Shown here: positions 25,798-54,850 of the stretch, piece after piece
Layout of the letters: each line of letters starts with the position of its first letter
Position numbering within the stretch: position 1 is the stretch's first letter
Source: Flectonema sp. DT1601
Taxonomy: Eukaryota
Reading direction: 5' to 3'
Length of the DNA: 64,000 nt
NCBI GenBank assembly: GCA_964019425.1
Contig: OZ025800.1
Span: forward strand, 930,001-994,000
Notes under the pieces: model-generated
What the model was told of the DNA's origin: nothing
The model's database searches: none
The model's input: only the letters and a program-made list of their open reading frames with translations
Position numbers and translations under genes: made by a program

Positions 25798-27627
25798 CTA
25801 TGTTGGCACACTCTTATCACAAAGACCTTCCGAAAGATTTGACGAAGGTACTGGTGAAGTCGGAGAAAGCGGTACTGCCAGCTGTAAATTAAGAGAGGCT
25901 CCACTCTTGTCTGAGTTATTTGCATCCCCCGTTGTGATAGCTGCGGGAAAGTGACACTCACAGCCCAAGCAAATTCTAACAGGTGTATTATATCCTAAAA
26001 ACGGAATAAGGGTTTTTAATGGAGAGCAAGAAGAGCAAATCACCTGACCACAGGCACGGCAGTGGTGGCGGCGACGAAACCATTTAAACTCTTTTAAACA
26101 AACATTACATTCAATAGCATCAATGTCGGGTATTTGAATAGGACGATTCTTAATAAATTCATCATCCTCAACTGCTGATAAGTCAACTGCATCCGGTTGA
26201 GGAGCACCCTCAGGACTTTCAATACCGAAGTCTTCGTTAGTGTCGTCGTTAGATGGAAGTGGTGGGTTCTCGAGAGCAAGAGATACTCGTGAGGGATAAG
26301 ACTTGGAAATACCATTTTCAGAGCCACTATCTCCGCAGTCTTCCTCTTCTAACATTTCTACTGCAGTTCTGAATCTATCACTGAAATCACCTTCCTGAAG
26401 CAGCACCAGCGACAGCAGGATTTCTCTGAAAGGGATCACGCCATTATTTCCCCAATTAAAAACCTTCGCAAACCCTGAATTGATCTCCGCGGCTTTCATC
26501 AGCTCTCCCAACTCGTCTCTTGACACTGGACCGTCGAGGCTTCCTTTCCATCTGGAGCGGATTTCTTCTATCAATTCTCTTGTTATTTCAGATCTTTTTA
26601 TAAATTCTAATCGATCATCTACTTTGTCACGCTTCGCGCTTCTGCTGCTGCCGCTGCTGCCACTGCTGTTACTTCCTCTTGCCATCATCCTGGATTGAAT
26701 TCGACGAGTTCTTTTGATCCAATCATCAGTTAAGATTTCCTTAGTCATATTAGCAACTTCAACAAGACCAGAAGGATCATAAAGCGAAGCAGTTCCATGT
26801 AAGAAACTACTCACGGCATCATCAACTGTTTCCGCACTAAGCAATTCCGCTTTAAGGAGCATTACTAACGAAGCAGTAAGCCTCAACAGTACTATCCTTG
26901 GATTTTCTGCGTTAAACATAGCCTTCCACAACTGCAAGACTGCTTCCGCCGGTGTACCCCTAGCAAATAAACAGACCAAATATTGAGTAAATACCGCCGA
27001 ACAAGAAAACCCCAAGGTGCTAAGATGGACCCACAACTTTGGTTCCAACTCTTGCAACATAAGCTCTAGAACTGCTAAATCAACAATAACACCTTTGAGG
27101 CCTTTGTAGTAGTCAGGAACAATCTGCTCAACGATATTTGATAGAAGCCAAAAGGCTTCTTCTTCAGAAGCAATTCTACCCAGTAGCGCTGTGATGTAGT
27201 TCATACCTTGGCAGTAACCAACTTCGCGATTTCGAAGAACATACGCGTGAAGAATTTTTTCGCAGTTGCGCTTAATTGAAGATTCAGAAACGTGGCCTGG
27301 GCATGTTCGAGGTATGTCTCGCTCTACTTCTCTATAAGCAGATTCAACTTCTTCATACGCACGTACAACCGCTGGATGTTGTTTGTCAAGAACGCCGCTT
27401 TGCCGAGTTGCCCACTTCAAATTCTTGTAATATCCTTCTTCATTATACCAAATTAACTTCTCAATTGATCTCGTTGGCCACAACCACCGCCCCCATCCCC
27501 CTTTCTCAGCTACTTCTTCGTGAAGCGCGCTTTGTTGTGCTGATCCTGACCACCTCACATGCGATACATCATTAGCAACTACATATCCGAATACATCACG
27601 TTTGTTACCATCGTCGGTTTCGTTCAT
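25798..27627 (-). CDS. TBC-domain Rab-GAP with a C-terminal FYVE finger
   Basis: R-finger ERDIPRT and Q-finger GYCQGMNY are intact. FYVE CNVC..FKWFRRRHHCRACGQVICSSCS..VRICLGC. First plausible ATG at 27627. Confidence 0.88.
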   Translation of the reverse strand: MNETDDGNKRDVFGYVVANDVSHVRWSGSAQQSALHEEVAEKGGWGRWLWPTRSIEKLIWYNEEGYYKNLKWATRQSGVLDKQHPAVVRAYEEVESAYREVERDIPRTCPGHVSESSIKRNCEKILHAYVLRNREVGYCQGMNYITALLGRIASEEEAFWLLSNIVEQIVPDYYKGLKGVIVDLAVLELMLQELEPKLWVHLSTLGFSCSAVFTQYLVCLFARGTPAEAVLQLWKAMFNAENPRIVLLRLTASLVMLLKAELLSAETVDDAVSSFLHGTASLYDPSGLVEVANMTKEILTDDWIKRTRRIQSRMMARGSNSSGSSGSSRSAKRDKVDDRLEFIKRSEITRELIEEIRSRWKGSLDGPVSRDELGELMKAAEINSGFAKVFNWGNNGVIPFREILLSLVLLQEGDFSDRFRTAVEMLEEEDCGDSGSENGISKSYPSRVSLALENPPLPSNDDTNEDFGIESPEGAPQPDAVDLSAVEDDEFIKNRPIQIPDIDAIECNVCLKEFKWFRRRHHCRACGQVICSSCSPLKTLIPFLGYNTPVRICLGCECHFPAAITTGDANNSDKSGASLNLQLAVPLSPTSPVPSSNLSEGLCDKSVPT

Positions 27628-27840
27628 GTTACTATTGGGAATACATATATCATTTATTGATTTTACTCTGATTCTCTTTGACAGCGAACCACCTGCAGAT
27701 GAAAGAATCAACTTTAAGGAGAATTCGTAAAAATAATAGTTAACACACAACAGAAACCAAGTATCCTTAAGTGGCTGTTACTTGAATTATAGATGCTTTG
27801 CCACAATGCTGTTAAGGGGAAATATAAGTGATGGTGGGTT

Positions 27841-28630
27841 TCAAGTACACAATTTGCATGATTTTATAACTAACAACTTTGCTTCAGCAACAGGAATAAG
27901 GGACTGGACACTTTCTGAATTCGCTATCTTCCCCCTTATCTCCACGATCCAATCTGGAACTTGGACAAACTCTTCTGACAATCTCTTATTGTGGAACTGT
28001 CCTTGTGTCCTTGTTAACTCCACTACCTCCAACATCCATCTGCTCCCCCTCCCTCTACTAACAGGACTTGTTTTCCTCATTACATCAGACTCTAGTCCAC
28101 GCGTTACACTCATAAAGTAATTTAGCTTGTCAAGTTCATCAATCATATCTTGCGAGTTTCTTATATTTATAATATTCTCAAGTTGACTGATAAGTTGATT
28201 AAACTCAGACTCTGTTATCTCATTTGTGAATATATCAAGGCGTTGTTAGGAATTTATTTATTCGTTCGGTCTTCCTGTTGAGTACTAAATCTTTCACAAG
28301 GGTATGATTGTGCACCATCTCCTTTAGTGATTTCGATGACTGTCGATGTTGCATCTGTTGGAATTGCGAATGAATCTGCCGTTGCATCCCTATCCTCCTC
28401 GACATGAAATTGTTTTCAGAGTTGATCTGTATTGCGCTTCTCCCTCTCATCCATCAAGGCATTGGATACCCTTGTACATCAATCTAGGCTCAGAGGTCAG
28501 TTTTTTGAGCCTCGCACTTTCCCTATTATCGACATCAGCCAGCCTCCAGCCTCACCTTGAGTCTCTCCATCTGTTTCAGAGGTTTGATTCTGTCGTTCGT
28601 GTTTTCTATTTTACCGTGATTAACCTCCAG
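27841..28630 (-). pseudogene. Broken ORF fragments downstream of the viral-type ATPase; probably decayed genes of the same element
   Basis: Several short, same-strand, coding-like frames (27841-28146, 28235-28450) with stops and frameshifts. No host-like poly-A/T spacers. Confidence 0.35.
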
Positions 28631-29297
28631 TAGGGTGTCCAACCCCTTCCTGAATCTCATATCCATGTCTGGAGGTTGTTATCGATGTTGATGAAACCGC
28701 ATCTCCAACCCTCGAAACCACGACTTGAAAGGGTCGCGGTTCACCCCTGACTCTACTCGATTGTGAATAGTAGTTACCTTGTGATCGTTCATCCTATAAA
28801 GTATGTAGCAACTCACGTTGTCTCGAATTAGCTTTGGCATATTGAAGAACGATTGACTGATGTAGATGGTTGAGATGTTGAGGTGTCGTCCACGAGAGAA
28901 GAGCTCAATGGATTTCTTCTGATCACATTCAAGTATGATGTCGTCCAATACTATCAGATTCCACAACTCCCGATTCAGGGTGTCGATGTCGAAAGTATCA
29001 ATTGAGTCATGGGCTTCGAAGATGGTTGGACAATCCTGAGCCTTCTTGTATAACTTTTCTTGCTTCTCTCCGAATATTTGGATGAGGTTGATACTTAGGT
29101 TAGTACAGAGAGGTTGAGATTATTGCGAGGGTGTCATAACAGGGTAGATTCTTGTCGAGTAACAGACTCATTACCACATTCGTCTTCCTACATCCCGAAG
29201 GTCCGGCAACCAGCATTCTGAACAGCCATTGCGGTGTTATGAGTGAGTTGTTTCTATACTGATGTGAGGCAGCCTGATCATAGTTCTTGATATTCAT
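28630..29297 (-). pseudogene. A32/FtsK-HerA-type DNA packaging ATPase of a Polinton/adintovirus/PLV-like element (inactivated)
   Basis: RMLVAGPSGCRKT (Walker A with G to R), SLY*PKY (in-frame TAA at 29100-29102 where Q is typical), LIVLDD (Walker B), LFSRGRHLNISTIYISQSFF..PKLIRDN. Frameshifted C-terminus GFINID...RFRKGLD. Confidence 0.8.
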
Positions 29298-29321
29298 CTC
29301 TTTTTAGATCCATAAGCTAAT

Positions 29322-29451
29322 AAACTTTGTGTGGAGCTGGCTGTATTTTTAAAACTTTGTGCGTGGAGCTGGCTGTTTTTTTGAAACTTTGTGCGTGGAG
29401 CTGGCTATTTTTTAAAACTTTGTGTGTGGAGCTGGCTGTTTTTTAAAACTT
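29322..29451. repeat. Left stub of the 32-bp satellite (~4 units)
   Basis: AAACTTTGTGYGTGGAGCTGGCTRTTTTTT units, cut off from the main array by the TIR element. Confidence 0.95.
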
Positions 29452-29511
29452 GGGAAAACCTCTAATCCAGACACAAAAGTTTCCGAAACCGCCAACTCTA
29501 TACAAAAAAAG

Positions 29512-29588
29512 TGCCTTGTGGCCTGTGGTTAAAAAATCCGCCACCCGGAATCGAACTTGCCGAATTTAAGGCAGACTTTTTTTTTTTT
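29512..29588 (+). promoter_or_regulatory. tRNA-like / Pol III-like cassette inside the left TIR
   Basis: 7-bp acceptor-like stem TGCCTTG/TAAGGCA, A-box-like TGGCCTGTGG at position 8, B-box-like GGAATCGAACT (AGTTCGATTCC on the minus strand), then T12. Confidence 0.45.
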
Positions 29589-30300
29589 CTGAAAAATGCG
29601 TTGAGTAATTTTAAATCTCCTCACAATTTTTTCTAAACAAACATGCCTGCTTCTGATGGGAGACACTTTTGGGACGCGTGACAAGTTCACAAAGAGTTTT
29701 TCTCAGATTATTTTGGACGTTCTTGCACCACGTCCGCCTGCCAATGTTTAGCTTGTACTAACATCATTGCCTCAAACCACCAGCACATCGTTTAAGGTGG
29801 TCTCTATGGAGGTGGGTGTTACAGTGGCACCAACTGCCCTTACATTGGCAACAGCTGTACAAGCACCCACTGAAGGGATGTAAGCACCTTGTTGACAAAG
29901 GCCCAAACGAAGATGCATCGATCATTGTATGCAAAAATGACTTCCAGGGATGAAGCCGACGGAAGACACAGAGGGGATGGATATATGGGGCAGACACTCT
30001 GGAACGTTGGTCAGACGCTTAATTGGCCCAAAGACGTACCCTGACCGAACGAATGTGGTGTGATTCAAAGGAGGGCTTGTTGTTTATGATCGGAAAATCA
30101 ATCTTCGTGTGCCAAAGAGCCATCGGGGCGCAGGATTGTAACTCCACCGCCTTTGCCAGGATAACCTTCGCCACAGCAACAGTCCGTACCTGACGGCACA
30201 AAACCTCGTATTCAAGTTATCAACAAGTTCCTCAAGTTATCAAGTACAGTTAGTCAGTACAGTTAGTCACTCAACATTGTGTTGACATTTTGAGGCAAAC

Positions 30301-30385
30301 AAAAAAAAAGGTTTGCAGCCGGGTTCGAACCCGCGAATTGCACCTCAGAAGACCGCGGTAACACCCACTGGGCCACCGTGTCAGC
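30301..30385 (-). promoter_or_regulatory. tRNA-derived Pol III-like cassette (A box, B box, oligo-T) originally next to the right TIR
   Basis: A-box TGGCCCAGTGG (30375-30365), B-box GGTTCGAACCC (30331-30321), T9 terminator. No complete cloverleaf. Confidence 0.55.
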
Positions 30386-30890
30386 AACAAAAAATAAATT
30401 TTTTTTTTTTTTTTTTGGTTACACTCGTCTGTGCTACCAAACTCTTTGTTTTTGTTCTTTTCACTTCTATGTTTTGTCTTTCTTTTATACTTTCTTTTTA
30501 ACTTAAGTCTGACAAATTGGAAAACACGGGAAACATAGGTAGGCTCCGCCTGAGGACGTAAGAAGAGCGGCAACGGAAAAATAAATGGTCACGCGTCCTT
30601 GAAATTGGACACATGAAGCTAATTCGGTTGCCATTCCTACCATCGATAAGGAAAAACAAAGAATCGAGCATATAACTAGAGCGGTGGTCAAAGACCACTT
30701 GAACAGCCCGAAGGCCTGCCCTCAAGAGAAATTTATAAGGAGAATAGGAGAAGAAGGAGACAGGAGTGTTGGATGAGACACTGCGACAACACCGAAGGTG
30801 ATGTGCAGTTACCCAACCAGGAGATGATTGATAATGATGAAAATACTAAAATAATAACAAATTGATATTGGCGACTACATGTCACCTACT

Positions 30891-33800
30891 TTACTTCCAA
30901 AGTCTAAGGTTAGATGTTTGTTCCATCCACCTTATGATCAACGCGAGTGATGGAAGCCACGCCAAAGTGAAGAGAGCTTCAAGGTTAGGAATTTCGTTGG
31001 CAATAATAAGTTCTCGATCGCGATCCCACTTGCCGGTCAGTGTTGAGAAGCCCAGGATTTTGAACCTGGCAGAGTCGAGTTTGGGAGATTGACATCCCTG
31101 CAGCAGGTGAACCTGTGAGGACGGTTCGCCACAAAATGGGCAGTCGATCGTCTTGCGCCAGTTCTGAATTAGCGGGTGACATCCTGTCCGGAAGTTCGCT
31201 ATCCGTATCTCGTCGGCTCTTTCCATCCCAGGAGGGTATTTAACGGAACGGCCTCTGATGAGGTGTTTGTAGCAGGTGTAACCACTCACGTTAAGCAGAT
31301 CCTTTTTGATGCAGCGCTTCACATGTGATGATCGCGAGAAGTACGTGCCTTTGACTAGCACAGGTCGGATGTTCTTGTTGTGCGCTGCTTCCTTTGCAAG
31401 CGCGTCAACTTCATCGTGAAACTCGATTCCAATGTGCGAGGGGATGAATTGCAAATGCACTTTCATCTCACACATGCGCAGGTATTCCAGTATCTTGAGG
31501 GACTCGGTATTCCTCTGTCTGCACCTTCCACCCAGCAGTTCATCCAGAAGGGATTTTGAGTCCGTGAATATCCTCACAGATTTCATTGAACGATCTTTGC
31601 TAAACACTGTTCTCAGATGTCTAGCCGCGTTCTTCAGAGCATGTTGTTCAGCCCTGTAGCTGCAGTCAGCTTGATAAAGCCTAGACGCGTAAGCAGATCG
31701 AAGGCCGCTACGTGACTTGGCAATATGAGCCGCACCGGCCGCGCCGGAAGCAGAGTAGGAGCCATCGCAGTTGATTACCATGTCGACAGGAGGCAACGTT
31801 CCAATGTACGACATGAACTTTTCTTTGTCCACCGCAGGGTTCGCGGACTTCGGAAATCCGCAGCTGTTGCTAATCCTAAGGTTCGTCGGAGATACCCAGG
31901 GTTCCATCGAGTCAGGCTGCACAAGGCACTGGCTTTCACGCTGACTATCAGTGCCAGGGATTAGGCCAGCCCAGTAGCTTTGTGTTGAGGCGAGTCTGTT
32001 TGTATTAGGTATCCAAGTCATGGCTTTATACCGGTAGTACGCAATTTTTGTCTGCTTTTCAATCTGACGTTTAAAAGGATACATGTCAGACTCCCACAAC
32101 AGTAACTCTCTTGGCGTACACTTGCTGCATCCAGTAACCAGTCTGGCGACCTTCCTCAGTTCGAAGTCGATGCTGTCAACGCTGCTGCTTATCAGCCAAC
32201 CAAAACTGTCAAGCGCATACGAGATTCTCGCGGTTACATAAAGGTTCTTAACCATGTTAAGAGTCTTGTAGTCCAGTTCGTACGGCTGGAGGCACTGCAG
32301 AAGTGATATCCCCCTCTTTAATTCTTCGTGAATCTTGCCTACTTGTTTGTGGAAGGTGAGCCTGTCGTCGATGTGAACCCCGAGGTATTTTACTGAGTCG
32401 ACTATCGGTAACAGAAAGGCAGTTTTGAATATTGTTCTCACAACCATAATGCTGTCCTCACGAACGACGTATTGCAGCATCAAGTTGTCGAGTTCTTCTT
32501 GTGTCTTGATTGGGATTCCTCCAATTTCAAGAATAGTTTCGCCACTTTGAAGCATGGGTCTGGGTGATTTGAGATTGATATGCTTCTCGATGTCACCATA
32601 GTCAAGTTTAAGCATGCGTTCCTCAACAGATCTAGAGAAAAGCAGTTCGCGATTACACGTATCGTTTAGTACTATGCCCTTCGAGCGAACATTCATCTTA
32701 AGCGCACAGGTTTTGGAGACTGATAAGGCCATGTCGTTTTCAAAACACCATTGATCCACTTTGTCGAGTACTAACTGAGCATTCGAAAGAGCTTCTTCCA
32801 TGTTTGATCCTGACACCACACATGCTGTGTCATCCGCATACAGAGCAGACGTCGTTGTTTCCTTCTCCAGTTCCAAAATCTTGCAGAGGTCATCAACGTA
32901 GATAAGATAGAGAAGAGGACCCAGGATCGATCCCTGGGGAACCCCCTTAGCCAGAGTACGGAATTCGCTAAAATACCCATTCGCTTCAACTCTAACCTTC
33001 CTGTTTGTAAGAAAGTCTGTGATCCATCTGATAATAACATTCGGAACACCCATCTTTACTAATTTTAATAAAAGTATCTTATGGTTGATCCTGTCAAACG
33101 CAGCAGTAAAGTCGAATGACAAGAACACTGATCTCTTTTCTTCCATGTGGCTCCTTACGATAGCATCTACTAGAACGGTGATCTGCTCGCAGGTATTTCT
33201 CCCCTTTCTGAATCCAGCCTGTAGTGGGCTGAGCGACGAATGTTTTGTGAGCCAGTGCATGAGTCGGTCATACACGAGCCTCTCCGCAAGTTTCCCAACA
33301 ACCGAGGTGAGCGTTATTGGTCTGAAACTCTTTAGTTCATTACGAGGTTTCCCTGCCTTGAACATGGGCTTGATTAGTCCCTGTTTCCATTGGTACGGTA
33401 CTTTTGAAGTCTTCCAGGAAGTGTTAATAATTCTCAAGAGGTATTCCACTGTTGCCGGAGTGAAGTTTTTGATCATCTCATTGTGAACTCCATCAGGTCC
33501 TGCAGCCTTGCGGGTCTTCAGGTTCTTAATCGCAGCTTTAATTTCAGCCATTGTGAAATCACAGCAAATATCTATTTCATTATCACCTTCTGAGAGTGCG
33601 GGGGCCTCTAGCGATAATATTTCCGATTTCGAGACAAACAGGTCCAAGAATGCTGATGGTAGATCGCAGTCAGAGATGTTGTTGACACTGATATCTTTAC
33701 CAGCATCTTGCTGCAGTTCTTTGATCTTCTTAAACGCAAAGGCAAAGTTGTTACCCTTGTCAAGTTGATCACGTAGGTGGACACCCTTCGATTTGGTAGA

Positions 33801-34802
33801 ATCTGGAGTTGACGTCTTCCACTTTCGTCTCCGTTTCCCTTTGAAAAGGAGACGTCGACGAATGAATTTAGCCGCCACTTCATGCAGTATGTTGTTAAAG
33901 AGCTTGGCATTCGCAGTTGCATCATCGGAGAGTCTTGATTTTCTAATTCTCTTTTCGAGCATGGTCCCAAAGCAGTTCCAGTCCGTAGACTTGAAGTCCC
34001 ATACAACGCGTTTCTTCGAACCTATCGTGGCCCGTGCAAGTTGGCACATGGGATCCAGTACGGTGTAGAGAGGTCGATGATCTGACCCATGTTTATTATC
34101 TTCTTCAATTGCACTAAATTCTTCAAGAACCATCGAGTTTGAAAAGAATACTACATCTGGCGAGGTACCACCCCCCGGGACGTCAGGAAAAGGCCTTGTG
34201 ATTGACCCCATCTTGTTAGCAACCAGTAGATCATTTTGAGCTGCCCATGCATGTAGAGTTGAACCTGCTCTCGTCGATTTAAGTGACCACACCGGATGAT
34301 GGGCATTAAAGTCACCCGCGACGATTGCTTTCGTTGAGACTGGAAGATCTGACTCTCTGATCATGCATCCCGGGGGAGCATAAACATTGATGATGTCAAT
34401 CTTTCCACCTATGTTGACCTTCACGACCTCGACATCATTAAAGTGTGGCGGAAGCTCCATGTTCAAACGCTGCTGAGTGTGGCATTTTTTCACCATAGAA
34501 ATAACCCCTCCACCTCGTGTTGCCCTATCATTCCGATAGGTGAAATAGTCCGTGTGCGAAATTACATCATTCGTCCAAGTCTCCTGTAGGCACAGTACGT
34601 CAGGCGCATAGGCATTAAGCAGCTTGTGAATATAAGCGCCTTTGTTCCCCATCGATCGACAGTTCCAGCTCAGTAGAGATATGAGAGAGTTGTCAGGGCC
34701 AGGGTTGCGTTCGACGTCGCCTGCCTTTAGCAGCAGTTCACGAGCCGTATCCTTTTCCACAAGTGAGTTGGTCGGACTGAGTTCATCCTCATCGTCATCT
34801 AG
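30891..34802 (-). CDS. LINE ORF2: 2A peptide, apurinic-like endonuclease, reverse transcriptase, RNase H, zinc finger
   Basis: LLLKAGDVERNPGP. APE motifs SWNCR, LQET, GDFNAH, SDH. RT motifs QAGFR, DFTAAFD, GVPQGS, YADD, KYLGV. RNase H motifs CDGS, AE, TDS, PSH. CPFC..HLL..C. No internal stops. Confidence 0.92.
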   Translation of the reverse strand, partial: LDDDEDELSPTNSLVEKDTARELLLKAGDVERNPGPDNSLISLLSWNCRSMGNKGAYIHKLLNAYAPDVLCLQETWTNDVISHTDYFTYRNDRATRGGGVISMVKKCHTQQRLNMELPPHFNDVEVVKVNIGGKIDIINVYAPPGCMIRESDLPVSTKAIVAGDFNAHHPVWSLKSTRAGSTLHAWAAQNDLLVANKMGSITRPFPDVPGGGTSPDVVFFSNSMVLEEFSAIEEDNKHGSDHRPLYTVLDPMCQLARATIGSKKRVVWDFKSTDWNCFGTMLEKRIRKSRLSDDATANAKLFNNILHEVAAKFIRRRLLFKGKRRRKWKTSTPDSTKSKGVHLRDQLDKGNNFAFAFKKIKELQQDAGKDISVNNISDCDLPSAFLDLFVSKSEILSLEAPALSEGDNEIDICCDFTMAEIKAAIKNLKTRKAAGPDGVHNEMIKNFTPATVEYLLRIINTSWKTSKVPYQWKQGLIKPMFKAGKPRNELKSFRPITLTSVVGKLAERLVYDRLMHWLTKHSSLSPLQAGFRKGRNTCEQITVLVDAIVRSHMEEKRSVFLSFDFTAAFDRINHKILLLKLVKMGVPNVIIRWITDFLTNRKVRVEANGYFSEFRTLAKGVPQGSILGPLLYLIYVDDLCKILELEKETTTSALYADDTACVVSGSNMEEALSNAQLVLDKVDQWCFENDMALSVSKTCALKMNVRSKGIVLNDTCNRELLFSRSVEERMLKLDYGDIEKHINLKSPRPMLQSGETILEIGGIPIKTQEELDNLMLQYVVREDSIMVVRTIFKTAFLLPIVDSVKYLGVHIDDRLTFHKQVGKIHEELKRGISLLQCLQPYELDYKTLNMVKNLYVTARISYALDSFGWLISSSVDSIDFELRKVARLVTGCSKCTPRELLLWESDMYPFKRQIEKQTKIAYYRYKAMTWIPNTNRLASTQSYWAGLIPGTDSQRESQCLVQPDSMEPWVSPTNLRISNSCGFPKSANPAVDKEKFMSYIGTLPPVDMVINCDGSYSASGAAGAAHIAKSRSGLRSAYASRLYQADCSYRAEQHALKNAARHLRTVFSKDRSMKSVRIFTDSKSLLDELLGGRCRQRNTESLKILEYLRMCEMKVHLQFIPSHIGIEFHDEVDALAKEAAHNKNIRPVLVKGTYFSRSSHVKRCIKKDLLNVSGYTCYKHLIRGRSVKYPPGMERADEIRIANFRTGCHPLIQNWRKTIDCPFCGEPSSQVHLLQGCQSPKLDSARFKILGFSTLTGKWDRDRELIIANEIPNLEALFTLAWLPSLALIIRWMEQTSNLRLWK

Positions 34803-36455
34803 TCAGTTGAGATCAAAGTCCGAATCGTTACTTTCCATTTCTACGTCACGGTTTTTATCACTATCCTGCTTAGCAGCAGATTCGGTGGGCGGTGTTGTTG
34901 TTTGTGCTGTTGCTGGTGCTGGCGTTGGTGCTGATGGTGCTGGCGCTGGTGTTGGTGCTGATGTCGGCTGCTGAGTTGGCTGTTGTGGTTGAGGAGTTGT
35001 TTTTTGTCTCTTCAGGGTTCCCGTTAGTTTTTGAGCCGCGTCGCCTGGGTTGTAGGTTGGGCCTAGCGGTTTTCTGTCAGTTCGTTTAACTTCTTTGTTT
35101 ATCACAAGGTATTCATTAGTACCTATGCTTACGAAGTTGGGCGGTTGAGATTTCGCAATTGCAACAATTGTAGTACTCCCTCCTTTATGGAAAGAAGCAA
35201 CAACTGTGTGTTCCCAGTTGTGTGAGGACTTCAAGAAGTCGCTGATCTGCGCTGTTGAGTACTTACGAATCGCCATCGAATTTATAACAAACCTGTCGCC
35301 CGAGGGCAGTGCAGGCTTGATTGCCGCGTTGAGCTTAATGCTGACCCTGATATTACAGTCAGGGTGGACTCGGAGTCCAAAACAGCTTTTAAACCTGCAC
35401 ATGTAGAATTTTCCTTTGAATTCATCAAGTGCAGAAGTCTTGGACTTCGCTGCCAGGAAGCCAAGGTCGTTTTTGAATTGCAACGTTGGCCAAACGTCAC
35501 TTCCGTTCGACCAACTCGGGTTTCTGAAAAAGACATTCTTGGGTTTGTCAGTTTCGGGTTCGCTGTTGTTGTATTCCAGAACCTCGTGTACTTGGTTTCT
35601 GGGGACTCTGAAAGCCATCGAGGTGTGGGACTCGTTCTTTCTGTAGCTAAAGGGGTCCGCCTTTATCTTCAATTTCTTTAGAATATCGGTCGTTTTGACG
35701 GTCAATTCTTTCTCAGCTGATTTTCCCCAGTCTTGGATGAATAGAACTGGGTTGGGAGTTGGAATCTGGTGGCTAGTTGCTGCTTTAGAAAAGTCGTCAC
35801 CAAATACGTGCGTGTAAAATACGCGCCTGATCTCGCAGACGCCACCCTTTTTTATCACCGGTAATGCTACTGGAACGGTGCTCTTTGTGAGCGGGATTTT
35901 GCTGATAGCAGCCCAACGGCCGCTCTTCTTTGTTTGGCGGAGTGCTTCTAAGTCTAGCTTCGAACGAACTAAAACAAGACCAGAGGTAAGGTTGTTTGTA
36001 GCATTAGCTGCTACGTCGTAACTGATGGTGGCCACAGCGCCTGCCCACGCACCGTGAATGTGCCACTCCGGGTAGCTTGCTTTTGCCTTTCCCTTCGTGG
36101 TTTGATTGTCCTTCATTGCTGTCGGTATCGGCAATGAGAACGGCTTCGTACTCGTTTGTTGATTAGAAGCTGTAGATGCTCCTGTAGTTGGTTGGTTGAC
36201 ACCTGTGGTTGAGGGTGTCGTCGCTTCTGCTGCCGTCGTCGCGGTCGCTTCCGTCCCACCACTCCCATCGAGTGTGTCCGGTGTCCTCCTCTTCATCTCC
36301 GGGTTCCCACCTTCTGACCCAGCTACGAATTGAACGATCTCCATTAGGAGATTTGCCACCCTTCTTTCCTTCTCTTGCTCCGGGATCCCGTCTTCTCCCA
36401 CTATCTTCAGGAGGTTTATTGCCTCCGATACCAACCTCTTCAGGTTGTCTCTCAT
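34803..36455 (-). CDS. LINE ORF1 (550 aa, basic, no recognisable CCHC knuckle)
   Basis: ATG 36455 to TGA 34805-34803. Lies between the element 5' end and ORF2, in the same frame as ORF2. Confidence 0.85.
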   Translation of the reverse strand: MRDNLKRLVSEAINLLKIVGEDGIPEQEKERRVANLLMEIVQFVAGSEGGNPEMKRRTPDTLDGSGGTEATATTAAEATTPSTTGVNQPTTGASTASNQQTSTKPFSLPIPTAMKDNQTTKGKAKASYPEWHIHGAWAGAVATISYDVAANATNNLTSGLVLVRSKLDLEALRQTKKSGRWAAISKIPLTKSTVPVALPVIKKGGVCEIRRVFYTHVFGDDFSKAATSHQIPTPNPVLFIQDWGKSAEKELTVKTTDILKKLKIKADPFSYRKNESHTSMAFRVPRNQVHEVLEYNNSEPETDKPKNVFFRNPSWSNGSDVWPTLQFKNDLGFLAAKSKTSALDEFKGKFYMCRFKSCFGLRVHPDCNIRVSIKLNAAIKPALPSGDRFVINSMAIRKYSTAQISDFLKSSHNWEHTVVASFHKGGSTTIVAIAKSQPPNFVSIGTNEYLVINKEVKRTDRKPLGPTYNPGDAAQKLTGTLKRQKTTPQPQQPTQQPTSAPTPAPAPSAPTPAPATAQTTTPPTESAAKQDSDKNRDVEMESNDSDFDLN

Positions 36456-36615
36456 AATTGCTTTTTCCAATAAAGTACAGAAACTGTAGCTTTAGAATCG
36501 TTGGAATAAATTTTATAATTCTTTCATTGGGGGATTGTTACTCCCGTGACAAAATTTTTTTTTGTATAGAGTTGGCGGTTTCGGAAACTTTTGTGTTCGG
36601 ATTAGGGGTTTTCCC

Positions 36616-39600
36616 TTAAAACTTTGTGCGTGGAGCTGGCAGTTTTTTTGAAACTTTGTGCGTGGAGCCGGCTGTTTTTTTGAAACTTTGTGTGTGGAGC
36701 TTGCTATTTTTTAAAACTTTGTGTGTGGAGCTGGCTGTTTTTTTGAAACTTTGTGGAGCTGGCTATTTTTTAAAACTTTGTGTGTGGTGCTGGCAGTTTT
36801 TTTGAAATTTTGTGCGTGGAGCTGGCTGTTTTTTTGAAACTTTGTGCGTGGAGCCGGCTGTTTTTTTGAAACTTTGTGTGTGGAGCTGGCTATTTTTTAG
36901 AACTTTGTATGGAGCTGGCTGTTTATTAAAACTTTGTGTCTGGAGCTGGCATTTTTTTGAAACTTTGTGTGGAGCTAGCAGTTTTTTTGAAACTTTGTGC
37001 GTGGAGCCGGCTGTTTTTTTGAAACTTTGTGTGTGGAGCTGGCAGTTTTTTTGAAACTTTGTGCGTGGAGTTGGCTGTTTTTTTGAAACTTTGTGCGTGG
37101 AGCCGGCTATTTTTTAAAACTTTGTGTGTGGAGCTGGCAGTTTTTTTGAAACTTTGTGCGTGGAGCTGGCTGTTTTATTGAAACTTTGTGTGTGGAGCTG
37201 GCTATTTTTTAAAACTTTGTGTGTGGAGCTGGCAGTTTTTTTGAAACTTTGTGCGTGGAGCTGGCTGTTTTATTGAAACTTTGTGTGTGGAGCTGGCTGT
37301 ATTTTTGAAACTTTGTGCGTGGAGCCGGCTGTTTTTTTGAAACTTTGCGTGGAGCTGGCTGTATTTTTGAAACTTTGTGCGTGGAGCCGGCTGTTTTTTT
37401 GAAACTTTGTGCGTGGAGCTGGCTGTTTTTTTGAAACTTTGTGCGTGGAGCTGGCTGTATTTTTGAAACTTTGTGCGTGGAGCCGGCTGTTTTATTGAAA
37501 CTTTGGGTGTGGAGCTGGCTGTTTTTTTGAAACTTTGTGCGTGGAGCTGGCTGTATTTTTGAAACTTTGTGCGTGGAGCCGGCTGTTTTTTTGAAACTTT
37601 GTGCGTGGAGCTGGCTGTTTTTTTGAAACTTTGTGCGTGGAGCTGGCTGTATTTTTGAAACTTTGTGCGTGGAGCCGGCTGTTTTATTGAAACTTTGGGT
37701 GTGGAGCTGGCTGTTTTTTTGAAACTTTGTGCGTGGAGCTGGCTGTATTTTTGAAACTTTGTGCGTGGAGCCGGCTGTTTTTTTGAAACTTTGTGCGTGG
37801 AGCTGGCTGTTTTTTTGAAACTTTGTGTGGAGCTAGCTGTTTTTTAAAACTTTGTGTGTTGAGCTGGCTATATTTTTGAAACTTTGTGTGTGGAGCTGGC
37901 TGTATTTTTGAAACTTTGTGTGTGGAGCCGTCTGTTTATTCGAAACTTTGTGTGTGGAGCTGGCTGTTTTTTTGAAACTTTGTGCGGAGCTGGCTGTTTT
38001 TTCAAAAATTTGTGCGTGGAGCTGGCTGTTTTTTTGCAACTTTGTGTAGCAGGCTATTTTTTAAAACTTTGTGTGTGGAGCTGGCTGTTTTTTTGAAACT
38101 TTGTGCGTGGAGCCGGCTGTTTTTTTGAAACTTTGTGCGTGGAGCTGGCTGTTTTTTTGAAACTTTGTGTGGAGCTAGCTGTTTTTTAAAACTTTGTGTG
38201 TTGAGCTGGCTATATTTTTGAAACTTTGTGTGTGGAGCTGGCTGTATTTTTGAAACTTTGTGCGTGGAGCTGGCTGTTTTATTGAAACTTTGTGTGTGGA
38301 GCTGGCTGTATTTTTGAAACTTTGTGCGTGGAGCCGGCTGTTTTTTTGAAACTTTGCGTGGAGCTGGCTGTATTTTTGAAACTTTGTGCGTGGAGCCGGC
38401 TGTTTTTTTGAAACTTTGTGCGTGGAGCTGGCTGTTTTTTTGAAACTTTGTGCGTGGAGCTGGCTGTATTTTTGAAACTTTGTGCGTGGAGCCGGCTGTT
38501 TTATTGAAACTTTGGGTGTGGAGCTGGCTGTTTTTTTGAAACTTTGTGCGTGGAGCTGGCTGTATTTTTGAAACTTTGTGCGTGGAGCCGGCTGTTTTTT
38601 TGAAACTTTGTGCGTGGAGCTGGCTGTTTTTTTGAAACTTTGTGCGTGGAGCTGGCTGTATTTTTGAAACTTTGTGCGTGGAGCCGGCTGTTTTATTGAA
38701 ACTTTGGGTGTGGAGCTGGCTGTTTTTTTGAAACTTTGTGCGTGGAGCTGGCTGTATTTTTGAAACTTTGTGCGTGGAGCCGGCTGTTTTTTTGAAACTT
38801 TGTGCGTGGAGCTGGCTGTTTTTTTGAAACTTTGTGTGGAGCTAGCTGTTTTTTAAAACTTTGTGTGTTGAGCTGGCTATATTTTTGAAACTTTGTGTGT
38901 GGAGCTGGCTGTATTTTTGAAACTTTGTGTGTGGAGCCGTCTGTTTATTCGAAACTTTGTGTGTGGAGCTGGCTGTTTTTTTGAAACTTTGTGCGGAGCT
39001 GGCTGTTTTTTCAAAAATTTGTGCGTGGAGCTGGCTGTTTTTTTGCAACTTTGTGTAGCAGGCTATTTTTTAAAACTTTGTGTGTGGAGCTGGCTGTTTT
39101 TTTGAAAATTTGTGCGTGGAGCTGGCAGTTTTTTTGAAACTTTGTGTGTGGAGCTGGCAGTTTTTTGAAACTTTGCGTGGAGCTGGCTGTATTTTTGAAA
39201 CTTTGTGCGTGGAGCCGGCTGTTTTTTTGAAACTTTGTGCGTGGAGCCGGCTGTTTTATTGAAACTTTGTGCGTGGAGCTGGCAGTTTTTTGAAACTTTG
39301 TGCGTGGAGCTGGCTGTATTTTTGAAACTTTGTGCGTGGAGCCGGCTGTTTTTTTGAAACTTTGCGTGGAGCTGGCTGTATTTTTGAAACTTTGTGCGTG
39401 GAGCCGGCTGTTTTTTTGAAACTTTGTGCGTGGAGCTGGCTGTTTTTTTGAAACTTTGTGTGTGGAGCTGGCTGTTTTTTTGCAACTTTGTGCGTGGAGC
39501 TGGCTGTTTTTTTGAAACTTTGTGTGGAGCTAGCTGTTTTTTAAAACTTTGTGTGTTGAGCTGGCTATATTTTTGAAACTTTGTGTGTGGAGCTGGCTGT

Positions 39601-42600
39601 TTTTTTGAAACTTTGTGTGGAGCTAGCTGTTTTTTAAAACTTTGTGTGTTGAGCTGGCTGTATTTTTGAAACTTTGTGTGTGGAGCCGTCTGTTTATTCG
39701 AAACTTTGTGTGTGGAGCTGGCTGTTTTTTTGAAACTTTGTGCGGAGCTGGCTGTTTTTTTAAAACTGTGTGCGTGGAGCTGGCTGTTTTTTTGCAACTT
39801 TGTGGAGCAGGCTATTTTTTAAAACTTTGTGTGTGGAGCTGGCTGTTTTTTTGAAAATTTGTGTGTGGAGCTGGCTATTTTTTAAACCTTTGTGTGTGGA
39901 GCTGGCAGTTTTTTTGAAACTTTGTGCGTGGAGCTGGCAGTTTTTTTGAAACTTTGTGTGTGGAACTAGCAGTTTTTTGAAACTTTGTGTGTGGAGCTGG
40001 CTGTTTTTTTGAAACTTTTTACGTTGAGCCAGCTGTTTTTTCGAAACTTTGTGTGTGGAGCTGGCTGTTTTTTTGAAACTTTGTGCGGAGCTGGCTGTTT
40101 TTTTAAAACTTTGTGCGTGGAGCTGGCTGTTTTTTTGCAACTTTGTGGAGCAGGCTATTTTTTAAAACTTTGTGTGTGGAGCTGGCTATTTTTTAAACCT
40201 TTGTGTGTGGAGCTGGCAGTTTTTTTGAAACTTTGTGCGTGGAGCTGGCAGTTTTTTTGAAACTTTGTGTGTGGAGCTGGCAGTTTTTTGAAACTTTGTG
40301 CGTGGAGCTGGCTGTTTTTTTGAAACTTTTTGCGTGGAGCCGGCTGTTTTTTCGAAACTTTGTGTGTGGAGCTGGCTGTTTTTTTGAAACTTTGTGCGTG
40401 GAGCTGGCTGTTTTTTTGAAAATTTTTGTGTGGAGCTGGCTATTTTTTAAACCTTTGTGTGTGGAGCTGGCAGTTTTTTTGAAACTTTGTGCGTGGAGCT
40501 GGCAGTTTTTTTGAAACTTTGTGTGTGGAGCTGGCAGTTTTTTGAAACTTTGTGCGTGGAGCTGGCTGTTTTTTTGAAACTTTTTGCGTGGAGCCGGCTG
40601 TTTTTTTGAAACTTTGTGTGTGGAGCTGGCTGTTTTTTTGAAACTTTGTGCGTGGAGCTGGCTGTTTTTTTGAAAATTTTTGTGTGGAGCTGGCTATTTT
40701 TTAAAACTTTGTGTGTAGAACTGGCAGTTTTTTTAAAACTTTGTGCGTGGAGCTGGCTGTTTTTTTGAAAATTTGTTTGTGGAGCTGGCTATTTTTTAAA
40801 ACTTTGTGTGTGGAGCTGGCTGTTTCTTTGAAACTTTTTGCGTGGAGCCGGCTGTTTTTTTGAAACTTTGTGTGTGGAGCTGGCTGTTTTTTTGAAACTT
40901 TATGTGTGGAGCTGGCTGTTTTTTTGAAACTTTGTGTGGAGCTAGCTGTTTTTTAAAACTTTGTGTGTTGAGCTGGCTGTATTTTTGAAACTTTGTGTGT
41001 GGAGCCGTCTGTTTTTTCGAAACTTTGTGTGTGGAGCTGGCTGTTTTTTTGAAACTTTGTGCGTGGAGCTGGCTGTTTTTTTGAAAATTTTTGTGTGGAG
41101 CTGGCTGTTTCTTAAAACTTTGTGTGTGGAGCTGGCTGTTTTTTTGAAACTTTGTGCGTGGAGCTGGCTGTTTTTTTGAAAATTTTTGTGTGGAACTAGC
41201 TGTTTTTTAAAACTTTGTGTGTGGAGCTGGCTGTTTTTTTGAAACTTTGTGTGTGGAGCTGGCTGTTTTTTTGAAACTTTGTGCGTGGAGCTGGCTGTTT
41301 TTTTGAAAATTTTTGTGTGGAGCTGGCTGTTTTTTAAAACTTTGTGTGTGGAGCTGGCTGTTTTTTTGAAACTTTGTGTGGAGCTAGCTGTTTTTTAAAA
41401 CTTTGTGTGTTGAGCTGGCTGTATTTTTGAAACTTTGTGTGTGGAGCCGTCTGTTTTTTCGAAACTTTGTGTGTGGAGCTTGCTGTTTTTTTGAAACTTT
41501 GTGTGTGGAGCTGGCTGTTTTTTTGAAACTTTGTGCGGAGCTGGCTGTTTTTTTAAAACTTTGTGCGTGGAGCTGGCTGTTTTTTTGATAATTTGTGTGT
41601 GGAGCTGGCTGTTTTTTTGAAAATTTGTGTGTGGAGCTGGCTATTTTTTAAACCTTTGTGTGTGGAGCTGGCAGTTTTTTTGAAACTTTGTGCGTGGAGC
41701 TGGCAGTTTTTTTGAAACTTTGTGTGTGGAGCTGGCAGTTTTTTGAAACTTTGTGCGTGGAGCTGGCTGTTTTTTTGAAACTTTTTGCGTGGAGCCGGCT
41801 GTTTTTTCGAAACTTTGTGTGTGGAGCTGGCTGTATTTTTGAAACTTTGTGTGTGGAGCCGTCTGTTTTTTCGAAACTTTGTGTGTGGAGCTTGCTGTTT
41901 TTTTGAAACTTTGTGTGTGGAGCTGGCTGTTTTTTTGAAACTTTGTGCGGAGCTGGCTGTTTTTTTAAAACTTTGTGCGTGGAGCTGGCTGTTTTTTTGC
42001 AACTTTGTGGAGCAGGCTATTTTTTAAAACTTTGTGTGTGGAGCTGGCTATTTTTTAAACCTTTGTGTGTGGAGCTGGCAGTTTTTTTGAAACTTTGTGC
42101 GTGGAGCTGGCAGTTTTTTTGAAACTTTGTGTGTGGAGCTGGCAGTTTTTTGAAACTTTGTGCGTGGAGCTGGCTGTTTTTTTGAAACTTTTTGCGTGGA
42201 GCCGGCTGTTTTTTCGAAACTTTGTGTGTGGAGCTTGCTGTTTTTTTGAAACTTTGTGTGTGGAGCTGGCTGTTTTTTTGAAACTTTGTGTGTGGAGCTG
42301 GCTGTTTTTTTGAAAATTTTTGTGTGGAGCTGGCTATTTTTTAAAACTTTGTGTGTAGAACTGGCAGTTTTTTTAAAACTTTGTGCGTGGAGCTGGCTGT
42401 TTTTTTGAAAATTTGTTTGTGGAGCTGGCTATTTTTTAAAACTTTGTGTGTGGAGCTGGCTGTTTCTTTGAAACTTTTTGCGTGGAGCCGGCTGTTTTTT
42501 TGAAACTTTGTGTGTGGAGCTGGCTGTTTTTTTGAAACTTTGTGTGTGGAGCTGGCTGTTTTTTTGAAACTTTGTGTGGAGCTAGCTGTTTTTTAAAACT

Positions 42601-45600
42601 TTGTGTGTTGAGCTGGCTGTATTTTTGAAACTTTGTGTGTGGAGCCGTCTGTTTTTTCGAAACTTTGTGTGTGGAGCTGGCTGTTTTTTTGAAACTTTGT
42701 GCGTGGAGCTGGCTGTTTTTTTGAAAATTTTTGTGTGGAGCTGGCTGTTTTTTAAAACTTTGTGTGTGGAGCTTGCTGTTTTTTTGAAACTTTGTGTGTG
42801 GAGCTGGCTGTTTTTTTGAAACTTTGTGCGTGGAGCTGGCTGTTTTTTTGAAAATTTTTGTGTGGAGCTGGCTGTTTTTTAAAACTTTGTGTGTGGAGCT
42901 GGCTGTTTTTTTGAAACTTTGTGCGTGGAGCTGGCTGTTTTTTAAAAACTTTGTGCGTGGAGCTGGCTGTTTTTTTGAAAATTTGTGTGGAGCTGGCTAT
43001 TTTTTAAAACTTTGTGTGTGGAGCAGGCTATTTTTTAAAACTTTGTGTGTGGAGCTGGCTGTTTTTTTGAAACTTTGTGCGGAGCTGGCTGTTTTTTTAA
43101 AACTTTGTGCGTGGAGCTGGCTGTTTTTTTGATAATTTGTGTGTGGAGCTGGCTGTTTTTTTGATAATTTGTGTGTGGAGCTGGCTATTTTTTAAAACTT
43201 TGTGTGTGGAGCAGGCAGTTTTTTAGAAACTTTGTGCGGAGCTAGCTGTTTTTTTAAAACTTTGTGCGTGGAGCTGGCTGTTTTTTTGAAACTTTGTGCG
43301 TGGAGCTGGTAGTTTTTTTGAAACTTTGTGCGTGGAGTTGGCTGTTTTTTTTAAACTTTGTGCGTGGAGCTGGCTGTTTTTTTGAAACTTTGTGTGGAGC
43401 TAGCTGTTTTTTAAAACTTTGTGTGTTGAGCTGGCTGTATTTTTGAAACTTTGTGTGTGGAGCTGGCTGTATTTTTGAAACTTTTTATGTGGAGCCGTCT
43501 GTTTTTTAAAAACTTTGTGTGTGGAGCTGGCTGTTTTTTTGAAACTTTGTGCGGAGCTGGCTGTTTTTTTAAAACTTTGTGCGTGGAGCTGGCTGTTTTT
43601 TTGATAATTTGTGTGTGGAGCTGGCTGTTTTTTTGAAAATTTGTGTGGAGCTGGCTATTTTTTAAAACTTTGTGTGTGGAGCAGGCTATTTTTTAAAACT
43701 TTGTGTGTGGAGCTGGCTGTTTTTTTGAAACTTTGTGCGGAGCTGGCTATTTTTTTAAAACTTTGTGCGTGGAGCTGGCTGTTTTTTTGATAATTTGTGT
43801 GTGGAGCTGGCTGTTTTTTTGATAATTTGTGTGTGGAGCTGGCTATTTTTTAAAACTTTGTGTGTGGAGCAGGCAGTTTTTTAGAAACTTTGTGCGGAGC
43901 TGGCTGTTTTTTTAAAACTTTGTGCGTGGAGCTGGCTGTTTTTTTGATAATTTGTGTGTGGAGCTGGCTGTTTTTTTGAAAATTTGTGCGTGGAGCTGGC
44001 TATTTTTTAAAACTTTGTGTGTGGAGCAGGCAGTTTTTTAGAAACTTTGTGCGTGGAGCTGGCAGTTTTTTTGAAACTTTGTGTGTGGAGCTGGCCGTTT
44101 TTTGAAACTTTGTGCGTGGAGTTGGCTGCTTTTTTGAAACCTTGTGTGGAGCTAGCTGTTTTTTAAAACTTTGTGTGTTGAGCTGGCTGTATCTTTGAAA
44201 CTTTGTGTGCGGGGCTGTTTTATTGAAAATTTTTGTGTGGAGCTGGCTATTTTTTAAAAACTTTGTGCGTGGAGCTGGCTGTTTTTTTGAAACTTTGTGC
44301 GTGGAGCTGGCTGTTTTTTTGAAAATTTGTGTGGAGCTGGCTATTTTTTAAAACTTTGTGTGTGGAGCAGGCTATTTTTTAAAACTTTGTGTGTGGAGCT
44401 GGCTGCTTTTTTGAAACTTTGTGCGGAGCTGGCTGTTTTTTTAAAACTTTGTGCGTGGAGCTGGCTGTTTTTTTGATAATTTGTGTGTGGAGCTGGCTGT
44501 TTTTTTGATAATTTGTGTGTGGAGCTGGCTATTTTTTAAAACTTTGTGTGTGGAGCAGGCAGTTTTTTAGAAACTTTGTGCGTGGAGCTGGCAGTTTTTT
44601 TGAAACTTTGTGTGTGGAGCTGGCCGTTTTTTGAAACTTTGTGCGTGGAGTTGGCTGTTTTTTTGAAACCTTGTGTGGAGCTAGCTGTTTTTTAAAACTT
44701 TGTGTGTTGAGCTGGTTGTATTTTTGAAACTTTGTGTGTGGAGCTGGCAGTTTTTTGAAACTTTGTGCGTGGAGCTGGCTGTTTTTTTGAAACTTTTTGC
44801 GTGGAGCCGGCTGTTTTTTTGAAACTTTGTGTGTGGAGCTGGCTGTTTTTTTGAAACTTTGTGCGTGGAGCTGGCTGTTTTTTTGAAAATTTTTGTGTGG
44901 AGCTGGCTATTTTTTAAAACTTTGTGTGTAGAACTGGCAGTTTTTTTAAAACTTTGTGCGTGGAGCTGGCTGTTTTTTTGAAAATTTGTTTGTGGAGCTG
45001 GCTATTTTTTAAAACTTTGTGTGTGGAGCTGGCTGTTTCTTTGAAACTTTTTGCGTGGAGCCGGCTGTTTTTTTGAAACTTTGTGTGTGGAGCTGGCTGT
45101 TTTTTTGAAACTTTATGTGTGGAGCTGGCTGTTTTTTTGAAACTTTGTGTGGAGCTAGCTGTTTTTTAAAACTTTGTGTGTTGAGCTGGCTGTATTTTTG
45201 AAACTTTGTGTGTGGAGCCGTCTGTTTTTTCGAAACTTTGTGTGTGGAGCTGGCTGTTTTTTTGAAACTTTGTGCGTGGAGCTGGCTGTTTTTTTGAAAA
45301 TTTTTGTGTGGAGCTGGCTGTTTCTTAAAACTTTGTGTGTGGAGCTGGCTGTTTTTTTGAAACTTTGTGCGTGGAGCTGGCTGTTTTTTTGAAAATTTTT
45401 GTGTGGAACTAGCTGTTTTTTAAAACTTTGTGTGTGGAGCTGGCTGTTTTTTTGAAACTTTGTGTGTGGAGCTGGCTGTTTTTTTGAAACTTTGTGCGTG
45501 GAGCTGGCTGTTTTTTTGAAAATTTTTGTGTGGAGCTGGCTGTTTTTTAAAACTTTGTGTGTGGAGCTGGCTGTTTTTTTGAAACTTTGTGTGGAGCTAG

Positions 45601-51600: not shown

Positions 51601-52404
51601 ACTTTGTGTGTGGAGCTGGCAGTTTTTTTGAAACTTTGTGTGTGGAGCTGGCCGTTTTTTGAAACTTTGTGCGTGGAGTTGGCTGTTTTTTTGAAACCTT
51701 GTGTGGAGCTAGCTGTTTTTTAAAACTTTGTGTGTTGAGCTGGCTGTATCTTTGAAACTTTGTGTGTGGGGCTGTTTTATTGAAAATTTTTGTGTGGAGC
51801 TGGCTATTTTTTAAAAACTTTGTGCGTGGAGCTGGCTGTTTTTTTGAAACTTTGTGCGTGGAGCTGGCTGTTTTTTTGAAAATTTGTGTGGAGCTGGCTA
51901 TTTTTTAAAAATTTGTGTGTGGAGCTGGCTGTTTTTTAAAAACTTTGTGCGTGGAGCTGGCTGTTTTTTTGAAACTTTGTGCGTGGAGCTGGCTGTTTTT
52001 TTGAAAATTTGTGTGGAGCTGGCTATTTTTTAAAACTTTGTGTGTGGAGCAGGCTATTTTTTAAAACTTTGTGTGTGGAGCTGGCTGTTTTTTTGAAACT
52101 TTGTGCGGAGCTGGCTGTTTTTTTAAAACTTTGTGCGTGGAGCTGGCTGTTTTTTTGATAATTTGTGTGTGGAGCTGGCTGTTTTTTTGAAAATTTGTGT
52201 GGAGCTGGCTATTTTTTAAAACTTTGTGTGTGGAGCTGGCTGTTTTTTTGAAACTTTGTGCGGAGCTGGCTGTTTTTTTAAAACTTTGTGCGTGGAGCTG
52301 GCTGTTTTTTTGAAAATTTGTGTGTGGAGCTGGCTATTTTTTAAAACTTTGTGTGTGGAGCAGGCAGTTTTTTAGAAACTTTGTGCGTGGAGCTGGCAGT
52401 TTTT
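36616..52404. repeat. Main satellite array, 30-32 bp unit GAAACTTTGTGYGTGGAGCTGGCTGTTTTTTT, roughly 500 units
   Basis: Continuous head-to-tail units with recurring variants. Identical ORF translations recur at offsets 1009, 3801 and 4213. Confidence 0.98.
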
Positions 52405-53215: not shown

Positions 53216-53221
53216 TTCTTT

Positions 53222-54817: not shown

Positions 54818-54850
<33 letters not shown>

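Follow-up and report, generated by a model that had tools for sequence, protein, structure and literature searches.

How ORF2 is translated from the mRNA of a long interspersed nuclear element (LINE) with two open reading frames (ORFs) has been called an open question in reviews of the field (PMC3894237), and the routes described to date are stop–start coupling, reinitiation, and entry resembling that at an internal ribosome entry site. L1Tc, Ingi, and further elements, most of them lacking an ORF1, are known to carry a 2A (StopGo) peptide where ORF2 begins; three two-ORF elements are exceptions (PMC3894237, PMC3708506). Here, we analyze a LINE copy on the minus strand of a 64,000-nucleotide (nt) stretch of the Flectonema sp. 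DT1601 genome (assembly GCA_964019425.1, contig OZ025800.1, positions 930,001 to 994,000). The whole stretch is called the window, and all positions are given in its coordinates. The element carries both an ORF1 and a 2A, with one in-frame stop codon between its two intact ORFs. An earlier note on this DNA had proposed that leaky readthrough of the stop, followed by skipping at the 2A, supplies the ORF2 protein (ORF2p).

L1Tc/Ingi and other 2A-bearing elements of the apurinic/apyrimidinic endonuclease (APE) type resemble the window LINE in having a 2A directly before the APE, in their order of APE, reverse transcriptase (RT), and, in some, RNase H, and, for L1Tc/Ingi, in their euglenozoan host (PMC3708506, PMC3894237). 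However, the Ingi clade is described as having a single ORF, and its 2A has been argued to replace ORF1 (PMC3708506, PMC3894237), whereas here a 550-amino-acid (aa) ORF1 is kept across families, in frame and one stop away. L1Tc transcripts are reported to be unspliced, while the window copy carries a spliced leader (SL). A Pr77 or HDV-like ribozyme of the Ingi type is not present at the 5' end, which consists of the SL and 12 nt, and Rfam gave no ribozyme match. RNase H is an Ingi trait. We also considered and rejected the SLACS/CRE type, as the endonuclease here is an APE and the flanks are an AT-rich duplication, not an SL intron or promoter. Elements of that type insert into SL RNA genes and carry a restriction-like endonuclease.

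Some described elements combine ORF1, 2A, and ORF2. CR1-26_BF, CR1-53_BF, and CR1-1_LG have all three in one element, as the window LINE does, with the 2A placed in ORF2, and have been seen as intermediates in the loss of ORF1. The ORF1p-2A-ORF2p proteins of the pseudoscorpion Cordylochernes, reported in a 2026 preprint (PMC13405545), have the same parts, but in a single frame. In the excerpts of these sources, an in-frame leaky stop is not described for either group.

Outside LINEs, gammaretroviral gag-UAG-pol and alphaviral UGA-CUA, the latter a type II context, also place an abundant structural protein and a rare polymerase on the two sides of one in-frame stop (PMC3542737, PMC5009743). These viral sites use a pseudoknot or stem-loop, whereas none was detected at the LINE stop. 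Both groups of viruses free the polymerase by a protease, not by StopGo. The human genes AQP4, MAPK10, OPRK1, and OPRL1 share the UGA-CUAG core, with 0.5–6.4% readthrough in reporters, but unlike the LINE they gain only short C-terminal extensions, without a 2A or a second protein. Two recoding events also occur in cardioviruses, where StopGo is followed by a -1 frameshift (the opposite order, with a different second event), and in Providence virus, whose 2As are listed in p130 and the capsid precursor and not directly behind the readthrough stop. Readthrough and 2A are each known separately. Their pairing in a LINE, as a leaky stop followed by a 2A, was not found in print in searches on readthrough in non-LTR elements, on diplonemid elements, and on the motif, which did not extend to most subscription papers or Repbase.

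The junction between ORF1 and ORF2

The element is a full-length, multi-copy, two-ORF LINE with APE, RT, and RNase H, spanning 36504-30393 on the minus strand, with a 10-bp duplication at each end and a poly(A) tail (Table 1). It is present as a single copy within the window, and its ORF2 side belongs to a 101-member protein cluster spread over many contigs. ORF1 ends with AAC (34808-34806), followed by TGA and CTAG. Beyond the TGA, the ORF1 frame stays open, as the earlier note had read it, from 34802 to 30894 (1303 aa, beginning LDDDEDELSPTNSLVEKDTARELLLKAGDVERNPGP). This frame holds, in order, a 28-codon linker, the motif GDVERNPGP, and the APE, RT, and RNase H domains. The 2A core, from D at 34718 to the final Pro at 34697-34695, is fully canonical: it conforms to the class A pattern GD(V/I)ExNPGP, has LLxxAG upstream as in P2A and F2A, and stands directly before the endonuclease. 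In a published 2A listing, GDVERNPGP occurs in two viruses.

The first in-frame ATG, at 34652, also lies where the note had placed it, inside the endonuclease and after the SWN motif. A start there would remove the SWN strand of the endonuclease, and since this Met is not conserved, it cannot be the family's ORF2 start. The further statement that no AUG lies between the stop and the 2A holds for the ORF1 frame only. In the +1 frame, the linker has three AUGs (34798, 34792, and 34786), the first of them directly behind CTAG and opening a 22-codon ORF. In-frame near-cognate codons in the linker are GTG at 34760, ACG at 34748, and CTG at 34736 and 34733. A start of ORF2 without AUG fits the window subfamily in frame but may fail family-wide, given called starts in P0002 and the Flectonema protein P0004. 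As for the stop itself, TGACTAG accounts for 5 of 1708 TGA triplets in the non-satellite part of the window, and TGA is an ordinary host stop, ending 5 of 19 long window ORFs, this ORF1 counted.

Conservation of the stop and of the 2A

A sense codon at the stop position in other copies would have marked the TGA as a copy-specific nonsense mutation, as the earlier note had pointed out. No such codon was found. Copies of ORF1 were judged from three protein clusters of 20, 13, and 18 members, with 15, 13, and 15 members listed, respectively (43 in all). Among the listed members, 36 of 43 end at the same Asn (13 of 15, 8 of 13, and 15 of 15), seven break off earlier (2, 5, and 0 per cluster), and none in the three clusters runs on past the stop. 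Many of these European Nucleotide Archive (ENA) records may share one assembly and are not independent lineages. Because 36 of the 43 listed members end at the same Asn, the stop is no copy-specific mutation. A fused ORF1-ORF2 protein was absent from 7985 longer candidates, in what was a weak search, and from the 7 matches of a length-free hidden Markov model search of 1.84 billion representatives.

At the DNA level, a second copy (X2 record 10, a contig of 151 nt at depth 2) has 25 differences in 140 nt from the window copy. Of the 16 differences listed, none falls in 34795-34811; TGA-CTAG is kept and the frame is open, and the near-cognate GTG at 34760 is changed to ACA. Contigs of X1, X3, and X4 do not extend over the stop junction. 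No DNA of relatives was found in genome contigs or viral contigs. A metagenome scan with a narrow pattern (a 2A, then a W-N-type motif) returned 58 loci, none of this family, and at none of them does a long ORF lead up to an in-frame TGA-CTAG; with so narrow a pattern, this has little bearing on other lineages. In viral contigs, TGACTA precedes a 2A at 9 loci, with 0 in frame. Two metagenome contigs, L064 and L103, apparently carry the same 2A-bearing element. In one, 238 open codons lead to an in-frame TGA that stands 28 codons ahead of the 2A core and has no CTAG behind it, and the other has no stop; the difference is probably a copy-specific change.

The last residue of ORF1 was compared in seven families. 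It is Asn in the element's own family and in P0182, P0183, P0210, P0211, and P0214. The residues at -2 to -7 differ among families, and the tails, with 0–5 of 20 residues in common, cannot be aligned. For an Asn end in at least five of the six other families, p is about 4-7e-7 if the families are taken as independent, which they are not. This count leaves out P0212 (a 93-aa fragment) and P0215 (E 9.5e-4), and P0211 and P0214 enter it as one partial record each. Among the six are two transcript-derived, Asn-ended Flectonema proteins of about 50% identity, and the only named close relatives of the element come from Flectonema neradi. With the rest of the tail free to vary, the fixed last codon points to selection on the context of termination. 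Among upstream determinants of UGA-CUAG readthrough in human reporters, the -1 codon has the strongest effect, and the part of the context that generalizes is the -3 to +4 window (10.64898/2026.07.14.738498). The ORF1 tails of P0180, P0182, P0183, P0210, P0211, and P0214 also carry a Met among their final 15 residues, set in an acidic context (e.g., DVEM).

On the ORF2 side, the 2A motif is present in three families: the element's own, P0002 (68%), and P0004 (44%), where the Flectonema core reads NVEVNPGP, with N replacing D. P0210 (ORF1) and P0002 (ORF2) occur on contigs of matching lengths and likely form one element. A quick tree, with 64 rows, places eight ORF2 rows in a clade of their own (SH-aLRT 100), with no named Ingi/L1Tc sequence among the matches. 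In sum, the layout of stop and 2A is real, and it is conserved in a LINE family that looks active.

The retroposed template

The earlier note had not taken in the element's SL, splicing in the host, or the possibility of CTAG as a YAG acceptor. X1 and X3 contigs match 36467-36504 with 0 differences, and X2 contigs show loose ends at both of the same places. The matching contigs have AA before and GT after on the minus strand, as expected of an SL RNA gene, and the published euglenozoan SL "Euglenozoa 14" differs from the element's 5' exon at two places (PMC3795323). Because an SL exon at the 5' end and a poly(A) tail are enclosed by the 10-bp duplications, the two-ORF mRNA was itself retroposed; the copied RNA is a mature, SL-capped, polyadenylated mRNA holding both ORFs. 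The "Euglenozoa 14" SL type is diplonemid and, together with the named Flectonema relatives and with the BILBO1 N-terminal domain and GT-AG intron-like breaks of host genes, makes a diplonemid host likely.

The SL exon of the window copy (36504-36468, minus strand) is nearly complete. In a sister subfamily, the proteins P0198 and P0205 point to an SL with a longer 5' untranslated region (UTR) behind it, and acceptor sites may differ among subfamilies. In the ENA proteins P0193 and P0205, the N-terminal extensions are translated from the element's own 3' UTR and poly(A) directly before the 5' end of the next copy, which points to tandem or nested insertions.

Proposed readthrough followed by StopGo

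We lean, with modest confidence, toward readthrough of the conserved ORF1 UGA-CUAG, after which StopGo at the 2A would release ORF2p from Pro. Taken in parts, readthrough at the ORF1 stop is probable and, given readthrough, efficient skipping at the 2A is very probable. Most ribosomes on the SL-capped mRNA would stop at UGA, giving the 550-aa ORF1p, and a few percent would insert an amino acid there and translate the linker. These ribosomes would release a 586-aa ORF1 extension ending in NPG at the 2A and go on from Pro to make a 1268-aa ORF2p, whose N-terminus would precede the SWN strand of the endonuclease by eight residues. Readthrough would set a low ORF2:ORF1 ratio, and the 2A would remove ORF1p from the endonuclease. 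The 2A would have to be translated in frame to be retained, and no conserved start precedes it in the window/X2 subfamily pair. What the earlier note proposed is partly supported, by the conserved stop, the 2A in three families, the lack of a fused form in the searches above, and the loss of GTG in the X2 copy; readthrough and skipping themselves are inferred.

Several points weigh against this reading. The DNA of the stop context is known for two copies only, the window copy and X2 record 10, and for the other families the comparison is of ORF1 protein ends. TGA-CTAG, whose joint conservation with the 2A the earlier note had suggested checking, is present in 2 of 2 copies with DNA, and the 2A motif in three families. 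At the divergence of X2 record 10, the chance of 7 unchanged letters is about 1 in 5 by hand calculation, which makes that copy weak evidence alone. In P0213, ORF1 ends in Gln, and Asn is not named as a favorable -1 codon in the excerpts of the human reporter study (10.64898/2026.07.14.738498). There are also candidate starts near the 2A. In P0002, the called start precedes the 2A core by 27 codons (the linker here has 28 codons), in Flectonema P0004, a Met lies 24 codons before the 2A, and in P0003 and P0166, the called start is placed at the endonuclease itself. The P0002 spacing fits TGA-CTA-GTG, because the same gene calls use GTG in the window subfamily (P0121); a true ATG is also possible.

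Structure and precedent likewise give grounds for caution. Four local folds compared with shuffles revealed no stable 3' stem-loop after the stop (z -0.43 to +1.09). Viral UGA-CUA readthrough sites usually have one (PMC3542737), whereas human UGA-CUAG cases have been described without it. We found no published report of CUAG-stimulated readthrough in euglenozoans, and reporters for Tca2, which has a similar gag-stop-pol layout, showed no readthrough. As for the 2A, one screen found high activity in only 43 of 580 retroelement 2As, and in another, protein output fell with most retrotransposon 2As.

Other ways of making ORF2p need to be considered. Ribosomes could terminate at UGA and reinitiate nearby without an AUG, with the 2A trimming the resulting N-terminus, which we judge to be unlikely. 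Reinitiation of ORF2 independent of AUG was reportedly proposed for mammalian L1 by Alisch in 2006. SART1 and L1 are described as using termination-reinitiation, reinitiation in caliciviruses accepts non-AUG and non-cognate codons, and an Asp-rich C-terminus drives the coupling in CASQ2 (PMC5972666); the ORF1 tails here are acidic, and the called starts before the 2A in P0002 and P0004 would suit such a route. However, reinitiation needs neither an in-frame ORF2, nor CUAG, nor a fixed last residue. No near-cognate codon is conserved, with GTG lost in the X2 copy, and UGGGA (motif 1 of the termination upstream ribosome-binding site, TURBS) does not occur in the 95 nt before the stop.

Splicing is the next candidate, and an improbable one. 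With CTAG as acceptor, a cis-splice from a phase-1 donor in ORF1 would drop the stop and fuse a shortened ORF1 to ORF2, or an SL trans-splice would give an ORF2-only mRNA. The element is SL-capped, host genes have GT-AG intron-like breaks, a consensus-like phase-1 donor, GTAAGT, lies at 35266, and CTGAC just before the AG resembles a branch site. Yet trans-splicing at CTAG would leave only +1-frame AUGs before the 2A, and pyrimidines make up 40% of the 60 nt before the AG, which lack the T/C runs that precede the AGs upstream of most host ORFs. The nearest phase-1 GT (34831) is lost in the X2 copy, and P0210 has Lys in place of the Arg behind the 35266 donor. Cis preference is established for L1. 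If it holds here, spliced copies should be retroposed, but no spliced or fused product was found in the protein searches above.

A further reading, about as improbable as splicing, accepts the readthrough but has the 2A skip poorly or mainly cause drop-off, so that ORF2p would be partly an ORF1-ORF2 fusion or be dampened twice. Luke and colleagues argued that 2A downregulates ORF2 (PMC3894237), most retroelement 2As are mid-range or protein-reducing, and P0004 has N for the core D; the window motif, on the other hand, has the canonical core, upstream LLxxAG, and position immediately before the endonuclease noted above. That an ORF1-2A-ORF2 element with a single ORF acquired the stop by nonsense mutation, or that the stop is a sequencing error, is largely refuted and highly improbable. 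Single frames of this kind are reported in Cordylochernes (PMC13405545) and many ENA copies may derive from one assembly, but the Asn end is shared by 36 of 43 listed members and two Flectonema transcript proteins, an independent contig keeps the TGA, and no fused form was found. Redefinition of UGA in the host, by reassignment or as selenocysteine, is hardly credible, with no supporting point found, host ORFs (one a Pfam-complete kinase) ending in TGA, and no match to a selenocysteine insertion sequence or tRNA-Sec in 27000-37000 at E up to 1.

Returning to readthrough followed by StopGo, we suggest, as a tentative possibility, that in a lineage of diplonemid LINEs an Asn-UGA-CUAG readthrough signal and a 2A have been retained over about 50% protein divergence, and that these elements would obtain free ORF2p without a start codon or protease, on a retroposed SL-capped mRNA. 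If true, this would be a further ORF2 route, joining retroviral ratio-setting to picornaviral cutting, and the element would be a non-long-terminal-repeat retrotransposon with programmed stop-codon readthrough and a natural readthrough-then-StopGo cassette. The layout is at odds with the idea that 2A takes the place of ORF1. For P-site control of readthrough, the Asn conserved before the stop offers a natural lead. As far as our searches reach, the site would also be the first test of CUAG-type readthrough in Euglenozoa.

Element anatomy and genomic surroundings

Table 1. Features of the LINE copy, in window coordinates.
Feature	Position	Strand	Basis or remark
5' target-site duplication, 10 bp, AAAATTTATT	36505..36514	-	identical 10-mer at 3' end; extension to 11-mer fails
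SL exon, nt 3-39, at element 5' end	36468..36504	-	X1/X3 contig matches; "Euglenozoa 14" with two differences
5' UTR, 12 nt	36456..36467	-	sequence
ORF1 of 550 aa, with helices at N-terminus, alpha-beta domains predicted to be RRM/ACT-like, and disordered acidic tail with DFDLN end	34806..36455	-	
UGA stop, putative readthrough site, after Asn codon	34803..34805	-	
CUAG 3' context, also YAG splice-acceptor-like	34799..34802	-	same letters in X2 record 10
28-codon in-frame linker without in-frame AUG, taking in upstream half of 2A	34719..34802	-	
2A/StopGo motif TARELLLKAGDVERNPG/P	34695..34748	-	sequence; counterparts in P0002 and P0004
APE endonuclease domain	34077..34673	-	Pfam PF03372 E 1.2e-12, PF14529 E 1.7e-13
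RT domain	32685..33344	-	Pfam PF00078 E 1e-32
RNase H domain	31383..31784	-	Pfam PF00075 E 1.6e-7 (segment excised for search)
Free ORF2p as predicted from Pro: 1268 aa, ending at TAA, with CxxC-H-C knuckle close to C-terminus	30891..34697	-	putative Pro start
3' UTR	30417..30890	-	sequence; X1 and X3 contigs cover region
Poly(A) tail running into 3' target-site duplication (30402-30393)	30393..30416	-	

ORF1 had no Pfam match. In a structure model of ORF1p (pLDDT 63.4), RRM and ACT domains tie at Z of about 7; Foldseek returned no match for this model at E 0.001, and the matches of an ESM Atlas search were unnamed clusters only (0.93-0.94). Proteins of the P0001 cluster, from a sister subfamily, have a different ORF1 and N-terminal ORF2 from those of the window element and a nearly identical C-terminal ORF2 part, which suggests recombination between subfamilies. 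A tRNA-like stretch at 30385-30310 (minus strand), with A-box and B-box-like motifs and a T run, begins about 10 nt beyond the 3' duplication. ARAGORN and Rfam made no call for it, and it may be a short interspersed nuclear element, a Pol III promoter, or a sign of insertion preference.

Host genes in the window include one with a BILBO1 N-terminal domain. GT-AG intron-like breaks were seen at 14194-14019 (minus strand) in a pyruvate dehydrogenase kinase-like gene and at about 17540-17475 (minus strand) in the neighboring gene; most other window genes look intronless and lie on one strand. A Pox_A32-type packaging ATPase fragment at 28682-29119 (minus strand; Pfam E 2.4e-6) is possibly a Polinton or virophage remnant. 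The element is flanked by a 32-bp satellite at 36619-52404, 53219-53670, 58186-60016, and 29322-29451, with about 500 copies in the longest array, and repeats of 141-151 bp occupy 52535-54992 and 57295-58177.

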